From positions 17,881-81,880 of the forward strand of contig JAYRIM010000021.1 of assembly GCA_041906785.1 (NCBI GenBank): a DNA stretch of 64,000 nucleotides, in the 5' to 3' direction. This DNA comes from Candidatus Levyibacteriota bacterium. Lineage in GTDB: Bacteria; Patescibacteriota; Microgenomatia; Levybacterales; UBA12049. How positions within the stretch are numbered: position 1 is the stretch's first letter; the number at the start of each line of letters is the position of its first letter. The position numbers and the translations under genes were made by a program. The notes under the pieces are model-generated. The model saw nothing but the letters and a program-made list of their open reading frames with translations. It was not told the DNA's origin and did not search any database. Shown one piece after another: positions 1,685-26,649 of the stretch.

Positions 1685-1825
1685 GTAGTATATGATAAAC
1701 AGAGATTAGTTTCTAATTTCGCTAGACTAATTCGCTGTCTTTCCCGAATAGGAAACATGTTGCTCTTTAACAATAGAGTGGCATGAGAGGAGCGTTTGGA
1801 TCTAGTACCGCTGTGGCTTTTTTCT

Positions 1826-2075
1826 GGGAAGCGGGTTGAAGCATTTATTGAAGTTGCATAGTTCAGGAGTAATCTGAACAGGTGCAACTTTTTTTTAAGA
1901 ACTTCAATTCGCTTCCCAGAATCCGGAGAGATCTCTGGTGAAGCACAAAGTCCTTCCTCGCGATTGAGCGAGGAAAGGTCCGGTATCGATCCGGTCTTAC
2001 TGCTAGTCAACCTTCCTGGAGAAGGGCCGTCAAGGCCGCCAGAAAGAGGCAGTATGGCTTCCTACGCTCCCTGAC
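1826..2075 (+). ncRNA. highly structured non-coding region (93-nt nested hairpin 1826-1918 GGGAAGCG..CGCTTCCC, followed by several 4-12 bp hairpins); candidate sRNA or structured 5' leader
   Basis: Multiple perfect/near-perfect stems seen; the only ORF here (1621..2010 minus) is low-complexity and implausible. Confidence 0.25.
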
Positions 2076-2161
2076 GTTTGGGAGAGGATCGAAATCGGTC
2101 TATCGAAACGTCTTTTTTCTTCATCGGGGGTACTGCCCCCACCCGCCCCAAGGAGGCACCC

Positions 2162-2971
2162 ATGTTCGCGCGACGCATAATGTTCGCCTTGCCGGTCATT
2201 CTGGCCGGCTTACTTGTTGCAGCCAGTATGGTTGCGACCGGAGCGCCGCCCGCCTCGGCGCAGGAACCGTCTACGGACGAACTCGTCCTCAGCTTGTCAG
2301 CCGACGAGGTTCTCGGCTACATGAGCCAGCCCGGGTGGGTTGGCGACGTCGAGGCTGTCAAGACCTCGCTTAGGCAGTCGAAGGCTGAGTCTACGGCCGT
2401 AAGCTGTTCGGAGCGTCCCAGTTTCTCTTACATCGCATTGGCTGTTGGCCCTGGTCCTGTCGTTGGAGGTCGCAAGTCCGTCATGACTGTGCGGACGTTC
2501 CGCAACCCGGATCCCAGCCTGGAGCACAGGTGGGGACCAGGTTTTGGTGGAGACTATTCGCTGACCACCAACTGCATGCAGGCGGACAATCTGGTTTCGG
2601 CTCGCTTCGTCACTGACGAAAACATGCGTGGGTCGTTCACGGCTACGTATGGGCTATATGTTCACACCACCAACCAAGCGGCGGTCGGACCGGTTACTGT
2701 TAACTACACGTATCCGTTCCAGCCTGCCGCGACGGCGACGAGCTTGCCCTACCCCGCGCCGTCACGCACGCCCGAGGCGTATCCCACCCCAACCGCCACG
2801 GTCACCCGTGGCTTCAGCGGTCAGGTGAGCACCCAGCACACCTGCCGGCAAGGTAACCCTGTACTTCGCGAAGGCATCGCGCATCCCGCGCCGTTACCCA
2901 CAGGCTTCCGGCTCTTGTGCGTCGGGCTTAACGACGCCTACCCGGTTTTCCAGCCGGTTCAGCCGCACTAA
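2162..2971 (+). CDS. GC-rich (about 62% GC) secreted protein of unknown function with Pro/Thr-rich C-terminal region; probable horizontally acquired gene
   Basis: AAGGAGG Shine-Dalgarno 7 nt upstream of ATG 2162; signal peptide MFARRIMFALPVILAGLLVAASMVATGAPPASA; strong GC3 codon bias in this frame; alternative-frame ORFs are Arg-rich as expected for off-frame GC-rich coding. Confidence 0.5.
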   Translation: MFARRIMFALPVILAGLLVAASMVATGAPPASAQEPSTDELVLSLSADEVLGYMSQPGWVGDVEAVKTSLRQSKAESTAVSCSERPSFSYIALAVGPGPVVGGRKSVMTVRTFRNPDPSLEHRWGPGFGGDYSLTTNCMQADNLVSARFVTDENMRGSFTATYGLYVHTTNQAAVGPVTVNYTYPFQPAATATSLPYPAPSRTPEAYPTPTATVTRGFSGQVSTQHTCRQGNPVLREGIAHPAPLPTGFRLLCVGLNDAYPVFQPVQPH

Positions 2972-3025
2972 CCGTGGTGGCATTCCCGGACTGTGATTGT
3001 CCAAAAACCGGGACCATGAGGTTCC

Positions 3026-3084
3026 CTGCCCCCGGCCGCGCAAAACGCGGCGAGACAAGCCCGCGCCAGGTGGCCGGGGGGCAG
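3026..3084 (+). terminator. long GC-rich hairpin (CTGCCCCCGGCC...GGCCGGGGGGCAG) without U-tract, downstream of GC-rich ORF
   Basis: 12-bp outer stem seen in sequence; resembles high-GC-organism intrinsic terminators lacking a T run. Confidence 0.35.
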
Positions 3085-3456
3085 GCCCTTGGGTCTGAGA
3101 AAGAAAGAAACACATGAAGGCGTTTCAAAAAACAAAAAGAACATGCTCCAAGCGACGGAAAACCCGTACTCTTGGAGGTGCCCAAATAAACTCATGCCAC
3201 TCTCTGATTCTGTATTCTTGAATTACCTATTATTGTCATGCTGAACTTGTTTCAGCATCTCAATTGTTAGTGGTGGGATCTTGAAACCTACCTATGTCAA
3301 GCAGGCGAGCTCCTTTGCAACGCTGAGTCCGCAAGTTCGGGATGACAAATATTCGAGGATAGAGAGTTGGAGATTGACTATTATATATTGTACTTATTTC
3401 TTGTTCAGTGATTGTAATCATTTTCTACTTAGTTTACTATATTTATATACTTAAAC

Positions 3457-7922: not shown

Positions 7923-8694
7923 TTGTACACATCCGGTGTGTACTAGATAGACACCTCAGGAAATGATATTGTAGAGTTATGCCCTATCGTCAAATGCCTT
8001 TTGTTTCTGGAGAAATATATCATGTTTATAATAGGAGTATAGCTCGTCTACCAATTTTTAATAGAAAAAATGATTATATTCGTATACTCGACTTATTAAT
8101 GTACTATCGTTATTTAGAACTTCCTCTTAGATTTTCACATTTTAATAGATTATCTGAAGAAAGAAAAAGGCAGTACGAAGAGATTTATTTTACAAATAAA
8201 AAAAAATCGATTGATATACTTGCTTATGCTATTATGCCGAACCATCTTCATTTTCTTTTAAAGCCATATACTTTTAGTGCGATTTCAAATTTTATGCGAA
8301 ATATACAAAACGGATATGCTAAATATTACAATATAAAAAATGATAGAACAGGATCTCTTTTTCAATTCATGTTTAAGGCAAAAAGAATAGAAACAGAAGA
8401 ACAACTTATTCACGTTTCAAGATATATACATTTGAATCCCGTGACTGCATTCATTATAAATATTGATCAACTAGGTGACTATATGTGGAACTCATTTAAA
8501 GACTACCTTGAAGAATCTTCATCACTTGTGACTACTCAACAGATTCTAAATTTATTCTCTTCAAAGGAACAATATAAGAATTTTGTATATGATCAAGTTG
8601 ATTACCAACGAGAATTAGATAAGATAAAGCATTTGCTATATGAATAATCCTTATGTGTCTATGTTGTACAAACCCGATGTGGGTTTTAGTGGGT
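7923..8694 (+). mobile_element. IS200/RAYT-like unit: HUH-Y1 transposase gene flanked by inverted copies of a ~40-nt hairpin (REP-like) element
   Basis: 5' flank 7923-7957 TTGTACACATCCGGTGTGTACTAGATAGACACCTC is the reverse-complement orientation of 3' flank 8653-8694 ATGTGTCTATGTTGTACAAACCCGATGTGGGTTTTAGTGGGT. Confidence 0.55.
7979..8647 (+). CDS. IS200-like / REP-associated tyrosine transposase (HUH-Y1 family)
   Basis: Motifs EIYHVYNRSIARLPIF (YHVxxR), AYAIMPNHLHFLL (HUH), SRYIHLNPV (catalytic Tyr); 222 aa. Confidence 0.7.
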   Translation: MPYRQMPFVSGEIYHVYNRSIARLPIFNRKNDYIRILDLLMYYRYLELPLRFSHFNRLSEERKRQYEEIYFTNKKKSIDILAYAIMPNHLHFLLKPYTFSAISNFMRNIQNGYAKYYNIKNDRTGSLFQFMFKAKRIETEEQLIHVSRYIHLNPVTAFIINIDQLGDYMWNSFKDYLEESSSLVTTQQILNLFSSKEQYKNFVYDQVDYQRELDKIKHLLYE

Positions 8695-13913: not shown

Positions 13914-14183
13914 TTAAGTTTGGTCGAGAGGTGAATTTTCGAGGTCTGGGTCATTTACTGTGCTTGGCTTTTCAGGTTTTACCACATCGGATGCTGGAAT
14001 AGGGATAACTATTTCAGCCTGATTTGTAGGTTCGAAAACAGGCTCTCGGATAAACTGTAAATCCATGTTTCGTAAATCTGACTGAAGTATTCCACGGGAA
14101 GACCACCCAAGAATAAAAAATAAAGGGAGAATAAGAAGAATCATCCAGAAAGAGAGAGATTGTCTATCGTCAATTTGATACAT
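13914..14183 (-). CDS. small membrane protein, hypothetical
   Basis: 89-aa ORF with one TM segment upstream of EPS operon. Confidence 0.3.
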   Translation of the reverse strand: MYQIDDRQSLSFWMILLILPLFFILGWSSRGILQSDLRNMDLQFIREPVFEPTNQAEIVIPIPASDVVKPEKPSTVNDPDLENSPLDQT

Positions 14184-14296: not shown

Positions 14297-14328
14297 GTTA
14301 TGAGTTATGAGTTATGAGTTATGAGTTA
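14297..14328. repeat. tandem heptamer repeat (GTTATGA) x4.5
   Basis: gttatgagttatgagttatgagttatgagtta read directly. Confidence 0.9.
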
Positions 14329-14730
14329 GGGGTGGGTAGAATCGTGCCGCAAGGGGAGGCATGGTATTTCAGCTCTAAGTGAGCTGGTCTTAGAGAGCTG
14401 GGCGCTCTCTTTAGACAACCATACCGCCCCTGCGGCTAAGAACCTTGTGAGTCACTACGTTGACCACCTTTCCCCGTAAGGGGAAAATACCTACAAGAGG
14501 TGGTAGTTCAGCGGAGCGCTGACAAGGGCTCCCTTACGGGAGCAAATTTTCAAATCTTGACCGTGGAACCGGTTATGTTTTCTCCCGAGGGAGAAGCCAA
14601 TTTCCGTTCCTAAAGAGGAACGAAAACATCCATCCCGAAAGATGGTGGCTGCCTCTTGCGAGGCAAAACCGGTTCGTCGTTCCCCAAACGATCAAGTATA
14701 GGGGGAGAATACCATGATCCTCCCGCCTGT
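14329..14730 (+). ncRNA. candidate large structured ncRNA (about 400 nt, GC-rich, no ORF) with long-range closing helix and numerous tetraloop hairpins; class not identified
   Basis: 5' GGGGAGGCATGGTAT (14351-14365) pairs with 3' ATACCATGATCCTCCC (14710-14725). Internal hairpins: CCCCgtaaGGGG, GGGCTCCCttacGGGAGC, CGTTCCTaaagAGGAACG, CATCccgaaaGATG, GCCTCttgcGAGGC. No ORF over 60 aa on either strand across 14184-15170. Confidence 0.35.
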
Positions 14731-14852
14731 ACCCGATCGTTTATTAATTTCAATGTAAAAGTTCACTAAAAGAAATCGCTTTCTTTCAAGAAGAATCCTT
14801 TTATATCATGTTTTGCATTCTTTGTCAAGACTATAGGGCCTATTTGGTTGTG

Positions 14853-14880
14853 GGTTATGAGTTGAGAGTTGTCTGTTATA
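14853..14880. repeat. degenerate heptamer-type repeat GGTTATGAGTTGAGAGTTGTCTGTTATA
   Basis: Same GTTATGA/GTTGTC word family as 14297, 24105, 25877. Confidence 0.6.
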
Positions 14881-14958: not shown

Positions 14959-15228
14959 ATTATTGCTTATGGTGGTGATTGCTATACCTCTAAAATTGAA
15001 CTATAATTATTGATTGACTTAAGCTAAAAATTCATACGAATGAGTTGAAATTGTCCTATTTATACATACAAATTATTACGAACATACATTGACAATTACT
15101 TACTATGGAAACAATCCGCATAAAAGGTGCCCGAGAGCACCCCAGTATAACGTTTACCTTCTCCCGAGGTCTACGTCCTCGCGTCGAAGGAGCTCGTATA
15201 CGGGGCAAGCAACTTAAATATAATTAAT

Positions 15229-18135
15229 ATGGAAAAAATTATAATTCGTGGAGCTAGAGAACATAATCTTAAAAACGTTAATTTGGAAATTCCGAAAAAT
15301 AAACTAGTGGTTTTTACTGGTTTATCAGGAAGTGGAAAATCATCTCTCGCCTTTGACACGATTTATGCCGAAGGACAACGCCGGTATGTAGAGAGTTTAT
15401 CTTCATATGCTCGTCAGTTTTTAGGAACGATGAAAAAACCCGATGTGGACCTTATCGAAGGGTTATCTCCGGCAATTTCTATTGACCAGAAATCTACTTC
15501 ACATAATCCACGTTCGACAGTCGGGACAGTTACTGAAATTTATGATTATCTTCGTTTATTATTCGCCCGAGTAGGGCATCCTCATTGTCCAAAATGTGGA
15601 AGAGAAATAGCCCGACAGTCTAAAGAGCAGATTACAAATGCTATTGCGGATCTAACACAGCAGTATCCGCAACTTGGTAAAAAACCGCTACGCACATTAA
15701 TCATGGCACCACTTGTGAAAGATAGAAAAGGTGAATATACAGAGATGTTTACTAGTCTGCGGAAACGGGGATATTCAAAAGTCCGTATTGATGGGAGAGT
15801 ATATGGACTTGATGAAAAAATTGTACTGATTAAGACAAATAAACATAGTATTGATCTTATTATTGATAGCATTGTTATCAATAAAGAAACAGATCGGACT
15901 CGTTTAGCAACTGACGTAGAACAGGCACTGCAATTCGGTAATGGAGAAATGATCGTCGGCGTTATCCATGATGCTTCATTCGACATTCCTGATAAGCCTG
16001 AACAGATCGAAGACCATTTATATTCTGAAAAATTTGCATGTCCAGTAGATAATATTTCTATTTCCGAAGTTGAGCCACGTATTTTTTCTTTTAATACACC
16101 CCATGGAGCATGTCCTGAATGTTCTGGTCTTGGCCGTGTTTTAGATGTAGATAAGGATTTAGTTTTTAATAAAGATTTATCTATTAATGAAGGAGGAATC
16201 TTGCCTTTCTTCAATATGATGATGAATGATACATGGATGTCACGGACGTTTAAGACATTTTGTAAAGAAAATGGACTTCCTATGGATAAACGACTTGGAG
16301 CATTATCAGAAGAACAAATCAATTTATTGTTGTACGGAACAGGAGACCGACAATATTATGTAAAAGGAGAAAATAGATGGGGAATGTCTACAGCGATTCG
16401 TGAATCATTTAAAGGAATTTCTTATGAATTAAAACGCCGCTATTCAGAATCAGATTCAGAATATGTTAAAGCGCAGATCGAAAAGTTCATGCGATATGAA
16501 GTTTGCCATGTTTGTGAAGGTGCACGGTTAAAACCAGAAGCTCTTTCAGTTACGATAGAAAAAGAGTCTATTGTCGCAGTTTCAGAGATGTCTATCCGGG
16601 ATGCCTTAGCATTTATCGAATCACTACCGAGTAAAATGTCTGATAGAGAAAATGAAATAGGCCGCTTAATTCTCCGTGAAATTCGACAACGTCTCTCTTT
16701 CTTGGTAGATGTAGGACTCGATTATTTAACACTTGCAAGAAGTGCAGCAACTTTAGCAGGCGGAGAAGCACAACGTATTCGCTTGGCATCACAAATAGGG
16801 AGTGGTTTAACCGGTGTGCTGTATGTTCTCGATGAACCATCTATTGGTTTACACCAGCGTGATAATACGAAATTAATAGAAACGCTTAAAAAACTCCGTG
16901 GGTTAGGAAATACTGTACTTGTGGTCGAGCATGATGAAGATACTATGAAAGCAGCGGATTATATTTATGATTTCGGTCCTGGAGCTGGGGTACATGGAGG
17001 AAATATAGTCGCCAAGGGAACATATGAAGAACTTGGGAAAAATCCCGCATCTATCACTGGCGAGTATCTTTCTGGAAAGAAAAAAATACAGATCAGGAAA
17101 ACAGAAAAAGGTGTCGGAGTGGACATGGATGGAAAGGAAAGCTCAATTACTATTCTCGGAGCAACTGAACATAATTTAAAAAATATTGACGTAACTTTTC
17201 CGCTTCACAAACTAGTAGTTGTGACAGGCGTTTCTGGATCGGGTAAGTCAACATTAGTGAATGACATTTTTTATCATGCACTGATGCAAGCGAAAAATCC
17301 ATATCATCGTCAGAAACCAGGAGCACATAAAGCTATTGCAGGCCATGAGGAAATTAAGAATATTTTTCTTATAGACCAATCGCCGATTGGGAGAACTCCC
17401 CGAAGTAATCCTATTACGTATACTGGAGCATTTAACTATATTAGAGATTTGTTTGCGAGTACCAAGGAAGCGAAATTGCGTGGATATGGTCCCGGACGAT
17501 TTTCATTTAACGTTAAAGGTGGTCGATGTGAAGCATGTGAAGGTGAAGGGCAAATAAAAATCGAAATGCAGTTTCTACCGGATGTCTATGTTACATGTGA
17601 AGTTTGTGGCGGAAAACAATATAATAATGAAGCATTAGAAATATTGTTTAATAGTAAGAATATCGCAGATGTTCTTCAGATGACTGTAGCAGAAGCAACA
17701 GCGTTTTTTTCATTCGTTCCTGGTCTAGCTCATAAACTTCAAACACTGAATGATGTAGGTTTATCATATATTCGTCTCGGTCAACCCGCACCGACATTAT
17801 CTGGAGGAGAAGCCCAACGCGTGAAACTAGCTTCAGAGCTTTCAAAGAAAGGCAAAGGAGCTATTTATCTTCTCGATGAACCAACTACAGGTTTGCATTT
17901 CGCTGATTTAGAAAAATTACTACTGGTTTTCAGAAAGTTAGTTGATTTAGGAAATACAATTATCGTGATAGAACATAACTTGGATGTGATCAAAAATGCT
18001 GACTATATTATTGATTTAGGTCCAGAAGGTGGAGATAAAGGTGGAGAAATTGTCGCTCTAGGTACACCTGAAGAAGTCGCTAAGATTGACAGATCATACA
18101 CAGGACAATTCCTCAAGAAAGTCCTCAAATCCTGA
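15229..18135 (+). CDS. uvrA: excinuclease ABC subunit A
   Basis: 968 aa; N-terminal [13 protein letters not shown]...[23 protein letters not shown]; two ABC modules with Walker [11 protein letters not shown], signature LSGGEAQR twice; zinc-finger CxxC pairs. Confidence 0.95.
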
Positions 18136-25702: not shown

Positions 25703-25876
25703 GAGCGTTTTACCATTATACTGCAGAGAAATAGAAGAAACAATCTTTTGAGTTTCAAAGAGTCAAGGTTGCAAAGTTACTTGAAAAAATAAAACAGCTC
25801 ATCTATAATATAGGCCTATAGTCGATTTTCGGCTATTTTTATTTGCACATTGAAACAGTGACGGAATCGGGAATAT

Positions 25877-25961
25877 GGTTATCAGTTATGAGTGGTCAGT
25901 TGTCAGTTTTTGAATAAATTATATCTCACAACCCATAACTCATAACTGACAATTGATAACC
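25877..25961. repeat. 85-bp inverted repeat built from heptamer words (GGTTATCAGTTATGAGTGGTCAGTTGTCAG ... CATAACTCATAACTGACAATTGATAACC)
   Basis: Arms reverse-complementary with few mismatches; sits immediately 5' of the second GC-rich islet. Confidence 0.8.
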
Positions 25962-26109
25962 ATTTTTCCGGTTTCGTCCGAAGGAAAGCCTCAGAAAGGA
26001 GGGAAAGGCTTCAGGGACATGGTGGCGCAGCCACCCCGGACATACTCGCTTTTATAGGAGTATGCCTCAAATTCAGTAGACCGCCAGGAAGCGGTCTGGG
26101 AGGGGAAAG

Positions 26110-26532
26110 ATGTCTCGCTTGCGTCTTGAATTCGTTGGTATTCTCGCGGTGCTGCTTGCATTCGCAGCAGGTTCCGCATATGCCAGCGACTCGACAACAG
26201 AATCGGCGACTACGAAAGTCGCCAACCAGTACAGCGTAGATTGTACTGCGTACCCTGTACCGGGATCGAATCCGCCGCAGCACAGTCGGACGCCGAATGG
26301 GCAGACGGGTGTGACTATCCGAGACACAGGTACAATCAATGACCCCAACGGGGTCGTGTACCAGTGTTGGTCAGGAAATTGGAACCCAGTCACCCGGTGG
26401 AAGCAGCCCGAGGTGCAACCACAGCCACAACCCGCTCCGGGCGATCGTTGGTGGTGGACGCCATGCACGCGCTGCCAATGGGTAGCTGCGCCTACGCAGA
26501 AGGCTACCCGGACCACATACCGTCGGCGCTAA
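26110..26532 (+). CDS. GC-rich small secreted Cys/Trp-rich protein (140 aa), hypothetical; could alternatively be non-coding structured RNA
   Basis: GGAGGGG SD before ATG; signal peptide MSRLRLEFVGILAVLLAFAAGSAYA; 6 Cys, W-rich; GC3 bias only moderate and a 147-aa ORF exists on the opposite strand, so coding status uncertain. Confidence 0.35.
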   Translation: MSRLRLEFVGILAVLLAFAAGSAYASDSTTESATTKVANQYSVDCTAYPVPGSNPPQHSRTPNGQTGVTIRDTGTINDPNGVVYQCWSGNWNPVTRWKQPEVQPQPQPAPGDRWWWTPCTRCQWVAAPTQKATRTTYRRR

Positions 26533-26555
26533 CTTCAGGCTTGTTCTGTCAGCGG

Positions 26556-26580
26556 CTTCATGGGGTCGGGCGATCGGCTC
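26556..26580 (+). terminator. hairpin GGGGTCGggcgatcggctCGACCCC followed by TCATGATTTCT
   Basis: 7-bp GC stem with T-rich tail 24 nt after stop of 26110..26532. Confidence 0.4.
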
Positions 26581-26649
26581 GACCCCTCATGATTTCTCGC
26601 TTTCCTCCAAAAACTTGCATTATTTTCTTAATTGGATTTTTCCGATTTT

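Follow-up and report, generated by a model that had tools for sequence, protein, structure and literature searches.

A probable noncoding RNA gene of an uncatalogued family beside uvrA: one conserved hairpin and a body of variable length

Ornate bacterial RNAs such as OLE (accompanied by oapA), ROOL, GOLLD and raiA are GC-rich, multi-hairpin RNAs that stand alone in AT-rich genomes. Sponge small RNAs (sRNAs) such as CsrB, RsmY and RsmZ are read from a strong promoter, end at a terminator and differ in hairpin number between close relatives, and Y RNAs, which bind Ro/Rsr through their stem, combine an invariant helix around a bulged pyrimidine with a variable module. An invariant bulged helix joined to a variable module is the pattern expected of a protein-recognition site. 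Patescibacteria have tiny genomes with little spare DNA, and their noncoding RNAs (ncRNAs) are almost unexplored. Here we describe an element that lies between uvrA and the gene of an 89-aa membrane protein in a stretch of 64,000 nucleotides of contig JAYRIM010000021.1 (positions 17,881 to 81,880; hereafter "the window", whose own numbering is used). The element is very probably a genuine ncRNA gene on the minus strand, belonging to a family that is not yet catalogued.

The RNA shares with OLE, ROOL, GOLLD and raiA its character as a GC-rich, multi-hairpin, stand-alone RNA of an AT-rich genome, and, as with OLE and oapA, it often precedes a small membrane-protein gene on the same strand. In those RNAs a large multi-domain core is conserved, whereas relatives of the present RNA share only a hairpin of 57 nt (H1) and differ more than threefold in length; OapA and the 89-aa protein are, as far as tested, unrelated, and the latter falls into no Pfam family. 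Strong promoter, terminator and changing hairpin number likewise recall CsrB, RsmY and RsmZ, but no loop motif such as GGA recurs, the loops being a mixture of GNRA, UNCG and other types. The invariant helix around a bulged pyrimidine and the variable module attached to it parallel the Y RNAs; H1, however, is a local hairpin and not a stem joining the 5' and 3' ends, a tRNA-like module is missing, and no Y-RNA model of Rfam matches. In general layout (promoter, structured RNA, terminator) this new family is of a familiar kind; what is unusual is a threefold range of length around one hairpin.

The gap between the open reading frame (ORF) of the 89-aa protein (13914-14183, minus strand) and uvrA (15229-18135, plus strand) spans 1,045 nt, in which the only ORFs are short and match no family. 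GC content is 0.50-0.53 over 14300-14700, compared to 0.30-0.41 in the flanks and 0.364 in the whole window. Seven perfect GC-rich stems, each of at least 6 bp, are found within 14370-14665, and in stem density the RNA gene occupies the top 1-kb bin of the window, tied with bin 26. A segment of 402 nt folds far better than its dinucleotide shuffles, with z of -9.1 on the plus and -10.7 on the minus strand. A preliminary description of this segment had reported a gene-free gap of about 1 kb, a GC-enriched stretch of about 400 nt, at least seven internal hairpins and a lack of coding capacity, and these observations hold. In particular, a coding reading of the segment is rejected on the grounds that its small ORFs belong to no family and that homologues differ by insertion or deletion of whole hairpins.

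Homologues were found at the same locus in relatives. The 89-aa protein has one distant relative (55% identity) on contig L002 (GCA_964512695.1), where the order of uvrA, gap and small ORF is that of the window and which is the window's closest relative. Nine further loci (L005, L006, L007, L009, L010, L011, L012, L013 and L017) were fetched through relatives of UvrA at 79-89% identity, and a metagenome scan with a promoter-plus-H1 pattern returned L015, a real locus, alongside L014 and L016, which are matches by chance. Overall the patterns used matched one species-representative genome and one JGI metagenome contig; the scan of species-representative genomes used a 3'-block pattern that was too strict and matched only the contig already known. 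The scan of viral contigs gave no match to the pattern, and blastn of the element against plasmids and phages gave none either. Judged from these scans, the RNA family is rare. The position of the element is syntenic in 11 loci; in L010 a gene for a DEAD-box helicase sits between the RNA gene and uvrA, and the linkage to uvrA is strong, not absolute. Named UvrA relatives at 73-77% identity belong to Levybacteria, Roizmanbacteria, Saccharimonadales and "Patescibacteria group", so that the lineage is probably Patescibacteria, for which candidate phyla radiation (CPR) is another name. A cyanobacterial origin, which the heptamer repeats had suggested, was discarded in view of these relatives. The metagenome-assembled genome with the closest homologue (L002/L004) is titled "uncultured Gammaproteobacteria bacterium", and is probably mislabelled given its Patescibacteria/CPR relatives of UvrA.

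H1 is the sole element that can be aligned in all loci. It occupies 14686-14742 on the minus strand as a bulged hairpin of 57 nt and about 25 bp, built from a variable outer stem, two U-A/A-U pairs, a 1x1 C.A mismatch, RGG/CCU, one bulged base and an upper stem of 9 bp that starts GGGA/UCCC. The bulged base is C, U or A among loci, and the loop is of YUUG type or, in the window and L002, one of 6-7 nt. Among 11 sequences, 16 of the 25 pairs are changed on both sides (60 cells) and 92.4% of cells are paired; no shuffle out of 500 reaches any of these measures, and the covariation score of 0.627 drops to at most 0.194 when the partners are slid by 1-3 columns. The outer and upper stems covary. 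Little or no change is seen in the six pairs beside the bulge, and this suggests that the bulge region is recognised by its sequence. A covariance model of the conserved helix (R1) matches each locus once and has a single match in the window. Homologues show no conserved contact of the H1 loop with the body. H1 is promoter-proximal in most loci, with L017 carrying about 330 nt ahead of it.

The promoter itself lies at 14800-14828 on the minus strand and is of sigma-70 type, with a -35 hexamer TTGACA at 14828-14823, a spacer of 17 nt, an extended -10 TG at 14808-14807 and a -10 TATAAA at 14805-14800. The arrangement TTGACA-N14-TGn-TAnnnn is present in 11 of 11 homologous loci, on the minus strand between the element and uvrA; a consensus promoter scanner missed it in the window solely by requiring T at the last -10 position. 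In the conserved helix, read on the minus strand, 28 G.U pairs stand against 5 A.C, R1 scores 52-72 bits on this strand versus 13-31 bits on the plus strand, and the strand downstream of the promoter folds 3-37 kcal/mol better than its complement in 10 of 10 homologues. Because of the conserved promoter, the G.U excess, the strand scores of R1 and the better folding, we read the RNA as the minus strand, that is, the reverse complement of the strand first read. The preliminary description had placed it on the plus strand, against all four of these lines of evidence, and its loops (GUAA, GAAA, AAAG, UUGC) come from the wrong strand; those of the transcribed strand are GCGA, GCAA, UUCG, CUUU, CUCG, GUAA and UUAC.

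A plus-strand RNA, closed by pairing between its 5' and 3' ends and possibly followed by a tiny ORF (ATG at 14715, MILPPV...), is extremely improbable. The good fold of that strand (z -9.1) and the stretch GGGGGAG-N-ATGATCCTCCCGCCTGT, common to the window and L002, would speak for it, but that stretch is the reverse complement of the 5' arm of H1, the 28 G.U pairs turn into A.C mismatches, R1 scores 40-50 bits lower, no conserved plus-strand promoter was found, and the closing helix is specific to the window. The ORF beginning MILPPV was discarded, being the complement of H1 and having no ATG in L005, L006, L007 and L009. The closing helix had likewise been part of the preliminary description, and the two ends are indeed complementary in this genome: the duplex of 14353-14367 with 14708-14723 reaches -22.2 kcal/mol, compared with -15.3 +/- 2.0 in shuffles. 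The equivalent duplex, however, is at shuffle level in 9 of 9 homologues tested, and both arms belong to other helices, one to the covarying H1 and the other to the closing helix of the 3' domain, which is compensatory in L002. We regard the complementarity of 5' and 3' ends as coincidental or specific to the genome of the window.

From the position of the promoter, transcription would start at about 14793 with an AU-rich 5' leader hairpin bearing a GCGA loop (14762-14793, minus strand; from the minimum-free-energy fold). Folding predicts a similar leader hairpin for most homologues, without conservation of its sequence. The unit reaches about 60 nt past the right edge previously given to it, up to the promoter, and would end near 14335, with the 3' domain closing at 14346 and the RNA perhaps reaching 14329. 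Directly upstream of the -35 hexamer is a conserved box, CCTATAGTC (14829-14837, minus strand), which as CCYATAGTC precedes TTGACA in 9 of 11 loci and is replaced by ATAGTATTTGACA in L011 and CCTATAGCTTGACA in L017; possibly it is an UP-like element or the site of a regulator. A link of this box to a second copy at 25815 was dropped, since two copies in the window are not significant.

The body downstream of H1 folds better than shuffles in all 10 homologues (z -4.6 to -12.7) and is of very different length between them. In L015 and L007 about 100 nt and a plain terminator follow H1, for a total of about 195 nt, and the RNAs measure about 275-300 nt in L013, L010 and L011, about 405-455 nt in the window, L002, L005, L006, L009 and L012, and about 650 nt in L017, an overall range of about 195-650 nt between relatives. 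Outside H1 no k-mer is common to most homologues; UUUGGGG and CUACCCC recur in 3-5 loci each.

The minimum-free-energy fold of the window copy places a GGGG tract and a multi-branch domain after H1 (14566-14685, minus strand), with a closing helix GAACCGGUU/AACCGGUUC (14667-14675 with 14566-14574) that encloses four hairpins with the loops GCAA, UUCG, CUUU and CUCG. In L002 this helix reads CGGCCAGCU/AGCUGGUUG, so that three double and two G.U changes leave the pairing intact; the CUUU hairpin is nearly identical there, and those at 14630-14645 and 14580-14595 are missing. The middle hairpins (14443-14565, minus strand, same fold) comprise one with a GUUCCA loop, one with a GUAA loop (14528-14543) and a branched domain closed by CCUUGU/ACAAGG (14522-14527 with 14443-14448). 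Compared with L002, compensatory changes are seen in the GUUCCA hairpin, the GUAA hairpin and the middle closing helix, and the inner hairpins differ. Within this part a lone hairpin at 14459-14488 (minus strand) resembles CRISPR-DR57 (23.6 bits, E 0.007, gathering score 39); it is absent from L002 and probably a chance likeness. The RNA is completed by a three-way-junction domain at 14346-14436 (minus strand), with a closing helix GCCGCAGGGG../..CCCCUUGCGGC and two inner hairpins, situated where homologues have their terminator, and in L002 the same architecture is formed by other inner sequences that still pair.

The window and L002 accordingly have a common architecture, in which a long-range helix around hairpins is followed by the GUUCCA hairpin, the branched middle and the 3' three-way junction. 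Outside H1 a manual, and hence subjective, helix map of the two counts about 19 double compensatory changes and 1 broken pair, one mis-specified helix being excluded; it replaced a MAFFT alignment with RNAalifold of the 3' domain, which misaligned and showed no covariation.

The variable hairpins could also be selfish or neutral palindromic insertions, similar to repetitive extragenic palindromes (REP), miniature inverted-repeat transposable elements (MITE) or mitochondrial GC clusters, in which case only H1 and the terminator would be functional. This would agree with the absence of whole window hairpins from L002, with a length of 195-650 nt inside a clade whose UvrA is 79-89% identical, with other untranslated GC-rich hairpin clusters at about 1720-2160, 25960-26110 and 15126-15215, and with a Y1 (IS200/RAYT-like) transposase gene at 7979-8647, 6 kb from the element. 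We nevertheless regard it as improbable: no hairpin recurs in the window beyond chance 10-12-mers, the hairpins common to the window and L002 keep their pairing through the double changes just described, the loops of the transcribed strand are enriched in GNRA (GCGA, GCAA, GUAA) and UNCG (UUCG), and the body of every homologue folds far better than shuffles. Nor is the element itself of the MITE or REP kind, given the one R1 match, the absence of repeated pieces of the RNA elsewhere in the 64 kb, the synteny in 11 loci and a terminal complementarity, in place of terminal inverted repeats, that is confined to the window copy. The Y1 tyrosine transposase gene matters only should the GC-rich hairpins turn out to be REP-like.

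Plain intrinsic terminators end the RNA in L015, L010, L009 and L017, and a terminal helix GGGG..UAG/CUA..CCCC is followed by a U run in L005 and L013. The 3' end in the window is uncertain, because no U tract follows the 3' domain. Downstream on the same strand lies the gene of the 89-aa protein, a single-pass membrane protein; homologues of it with the motif W..LLILPLFF..GW come after the RNA in L002, L010, L017 and, weakly, L006. In L007, L015 and L009 this place is taken by a tRNA gene, preceded in L007 and L015 by a promoter-like TTGTCA...TATAAT (read by eye); in L005 and L011 the genes on that side are convergent. L015, L010 and L017 have a strong intrinsic terminator between the RNA and the next gene. 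Both the convergent genes and the terminators argue for a stand-alone gene.

The same neighbourhood bears on a different reading, in which the RNA is a cis-acting 5' leader of the small membrane-protein gene (and here of the polysaccharide operon behind it), working as an attenuator or by processive antitermination of the put or EAR type, with H1 acting on the polymerase. Like the RNA described here, put of HK022 and EAR consist of promoter-proximal stem-loops ahead of many terminator-like hairpins, and the polysaccharide genes downstream in the window add to the likeness with EAR. In line with a leader, H1 is near the promoter in most loci, the window, L002, L010, L017 and weakly L006 carry the homologous small gene behind the RNA in the same orientation, the last helix of the window copy is not followed by a U tract, and CCCCC in H1 could pair alternatively with the GGGG just after it. 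No sequence or model of put or EAR matches, however, and several homologues have no downstream genes to read into: depending on the locus the RNA is followed by the small membrane-protein gene, a tRNA gene or a convergent gene, leaving nothing to regulate in L005 and L011, while the tRNA genes of L007 and L015 come with their own promoter-like sequence. In L010 and L017, moreover, strong terminators stand between the RNA and the small ORF, H1 is about 330 nt from the promoter in L017, and a plain hairpin is atypical as a ligand aptamer. We therefore consider a leader unlikely and prefer the stand-alone gene.

Two observations concern these downstream genes as such. The family of the 89-aa protein (W..LLILPLFF..GW, IVIPIP) is extremely rare: a search of 1.84 billion representative proteins gave four at E<=0.001, and just two of these are short and of matching length. 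In L015 a tRNA-like 5' half (GGACUGGUAGCUCAG...) at about 1100-1600 of that contig is interrupted by additional hairpins and several hundred bases that lie ahead of an intact tRNA at 1525-1596. This stretch may be an intron-containing or disrupted tRNA gene, as has been reported for Patescibacteria.

Known RNA families do not account for the element. A scan of the whole window with Rfam 15 (4,227 families) returned six tRNAs only, and relaxing the threshold to E<=10 brought up no meaningful match in the gap. Such a scan had been proposed with the preliminary description, whose suggestion of an undescribed ncRNA is borne out by this result and by the compensatory changes among homologues. Its placement of the RNA in the class of GOLLD, HEARO, ROOL and raiA, or as a remnant of a group I ribozyme, is not: GOLLD, HEARO, ROOL, raiA and OLE give no Rfam match at gathering score or E<=10, Intron_gpI gives none at E<=10, only the 57-nt hairpin is conserved, and homologues measure about 195-650 nt. 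Besides, the neighbours are uvrA, the 89-aa membrane protein and a UDP-glucose dehydrogenase, without an IscB/HNH gene that would point to HEARO, and the element is intergenic with its own promoter, which argues against a group I intron. A CRISPR array is likewise absent, the window containing no regularly spaced repeats but only the lone DR57-like hairpin.

The preliminary description had also failed to recognise RNase P RNA, transfer-messenger RNA (tmRNA) or signal recognition particle (SRP) RNA, and the models agree. It is very unlikely that the RNA nonetheless belongs to the housekeeping kind (RNase P, tmRNA, SRP or 6S) and has diverged so far that Rfam misses it. In favour stand its GC-richness in an AT-rich genome, its consensus promoter and a window copy of about 460 nt, and RNase P RNAs of CPR are known to fall under model thresholds: among 35 complete CPR genomes, 10 yielded RNase P RNA only below the Rfam noise cut-offs (PMC8172020). 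A helix AACCGGUU/AACCGGUU after ACAUAA also loosely recalls P4 with its ACAGAA. Yet RF00010 and RF00011 have no match at E<=10 on 476 nt, on 1.1 kb or in 8 homologous loci, tmRNA, SRP and 6S models have none at E<=10 on the 476 nt and the 8 loci, and ARAGORN finds no tmRNA on either strand. A P4 with bulged U, flanks GGAAAGUCC and ACAGAA and a 3' strand near the 3' end was not found; the P4-like long-range helix, which is the closing helix of the multi-branch domain, has no bulged base, differs between the window and L002 and has about 250 nt more RNA after it. The motifs CR-I, CR-II and CR-III of RNase P are absent, and in place of a uniform size and core there is an RNA of about 195 nt from promoter to terminator in L015 and a conserved part that is a simple hairpin. 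With a loop of YUUG type or of 6 nt, one bulge and no symmetric or asymmetric internal loops, H1 does not resemble SRP or 6S RNA.

What remains agrees with a generic stand-alone ncRNA gene, having a promoter in 11 of 11 loci, a strand-specific structure and terminators in most homologues, none being evident in the window copy. The explanation that we favour overall, with some reservation, is a stand-alone minus-strand ncRNA gene that would be strongly expressed, with H1 as a putatively recognised part and a variable body. The RNA would be transcribed, divergently from uvrA, from a near-consensus sigma-70 promoter with extended -10, and would end in a terminator-like closing helix. It would be abundant and stable and act in trans; the invariant bulge region of H1 would be recognised by a protein or a tertiary partner, and the variable hairpins would be stabilising or scaffolding expansions, not a catalytic or ligand-binding core. 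That the RNA works specifically as a protein-binding scaffold is a tentative idea on which we would not insist. A more speculative and rather doubtful extension, drawn by analogy, is an ornate RNA specific to Patescibacteria, in which H1 nucleates a ribonucleoprotein, possibly with the small membrane protein as OLE does with OapA, and the body grows and shrinks by insertion of GC-rich tetraloop hairpins. If so, the growth of an RNA gene by hairpin insertion would be a mode of evolution not described for bacterial sRNAs.

Several points weigh against this stand-alone gene with a recognised hairpin. Only 11 loci from one narrow clade (UvrA 79-89% identical) are available, and the shared ancestry of these loci inflates the covariation counts. 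Start and end of the RNA are deduced positions, and in the window copy, lacking a U tract after the 3' domain, read-through into the ORF of the 89-aa protein is possible. A core that consists of a hairpin only gives little mechanistic information, given how quickly hairpins are gained and lost, a large part of the body may be non-functional, and no candidate partner protein is found near the RNA gene, nor a TROVE/Rsr domain among the 26 window ORFs scanned. On the other hand, the consensus promoter, the covarying hairpin with its invariant part and the retention beside uvrA across the clade suggest that the RNA is probably important to the cells. The 57-nt core and its covariance model offer a concrete candidate, whose value is limited by its narrow distribution (11 loci), and the threefold variation in length is an unusual example of expansion in a structured RNA gene.

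The promoters of uvrA and of the RNA gene, which are divergent, are about 150 nt apart. That of uvrA (TTGCTA-N17-TATAAT, 14979-15007, plus strand) has conserved GTGATTGYTAT and TATAAT-ATTGATTGC boxes in homologues. Two boxes of GATTGYT type are found in this region (14974-15020), GGTGATTGCTAT over the -35 and ATTGATTGACTT just after the -10, both conserved in homologous loci; they may constitute a candidate operator for the control of uvrA, in a lineage without defined LexA boxes. The 5' untranslated region of uvrA (15126-15215) forms GC-rich hairpins of its own, one of which shares the 11-mer TTCTCCCGAGG with the RNA gene, and this segment is not conserved in L002.

A tandem repeat of the heptamer GTTATGA in 4-5 copies (14297-14328, no strand assigned) lies just beyond the 3' domain, and a degenerate copy is found at 14847-14878, beyond the promoter on its other side; L002 has no heptamer repeat at the corresponding place. 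Tandem repeats of GTTATGA and its variants flank both the RNA gene and an island at 26 kb (14297-14328, 14847-14878 and 25880-25965), and the short-read contig L001 breaks at the array at 14.3 kb.

The window contains other GC-rich islands. One at 1720-3090 has 64-67% GC in a genome of 36% GC and carries an ORF (2162-2971; 269 aa, with a signal-peptide-like N-terminus MFARRIMFALPVILAGLL) that belongs to no Pfam family and finds no relative but itself among 5.8 billion proteins; it is flanked by a hairpin-rich leader at about 1720-2160 and a GC hairpin at about 3030-3085. The second island (25800-26600) has 62% GC and an ORF at 26110-26532 (140 aa, signal-peptide-like), which is likewise without a Pfam family. 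Upstream of this ORF are a TTGAAA-N17-TATAAT promoter, a long hairpin of inverted heptamers at 25880-25965 and a hairpin-rich leader, and a terminator hairpin follows it at about 26560-26590; the island may be a foreign cassette.

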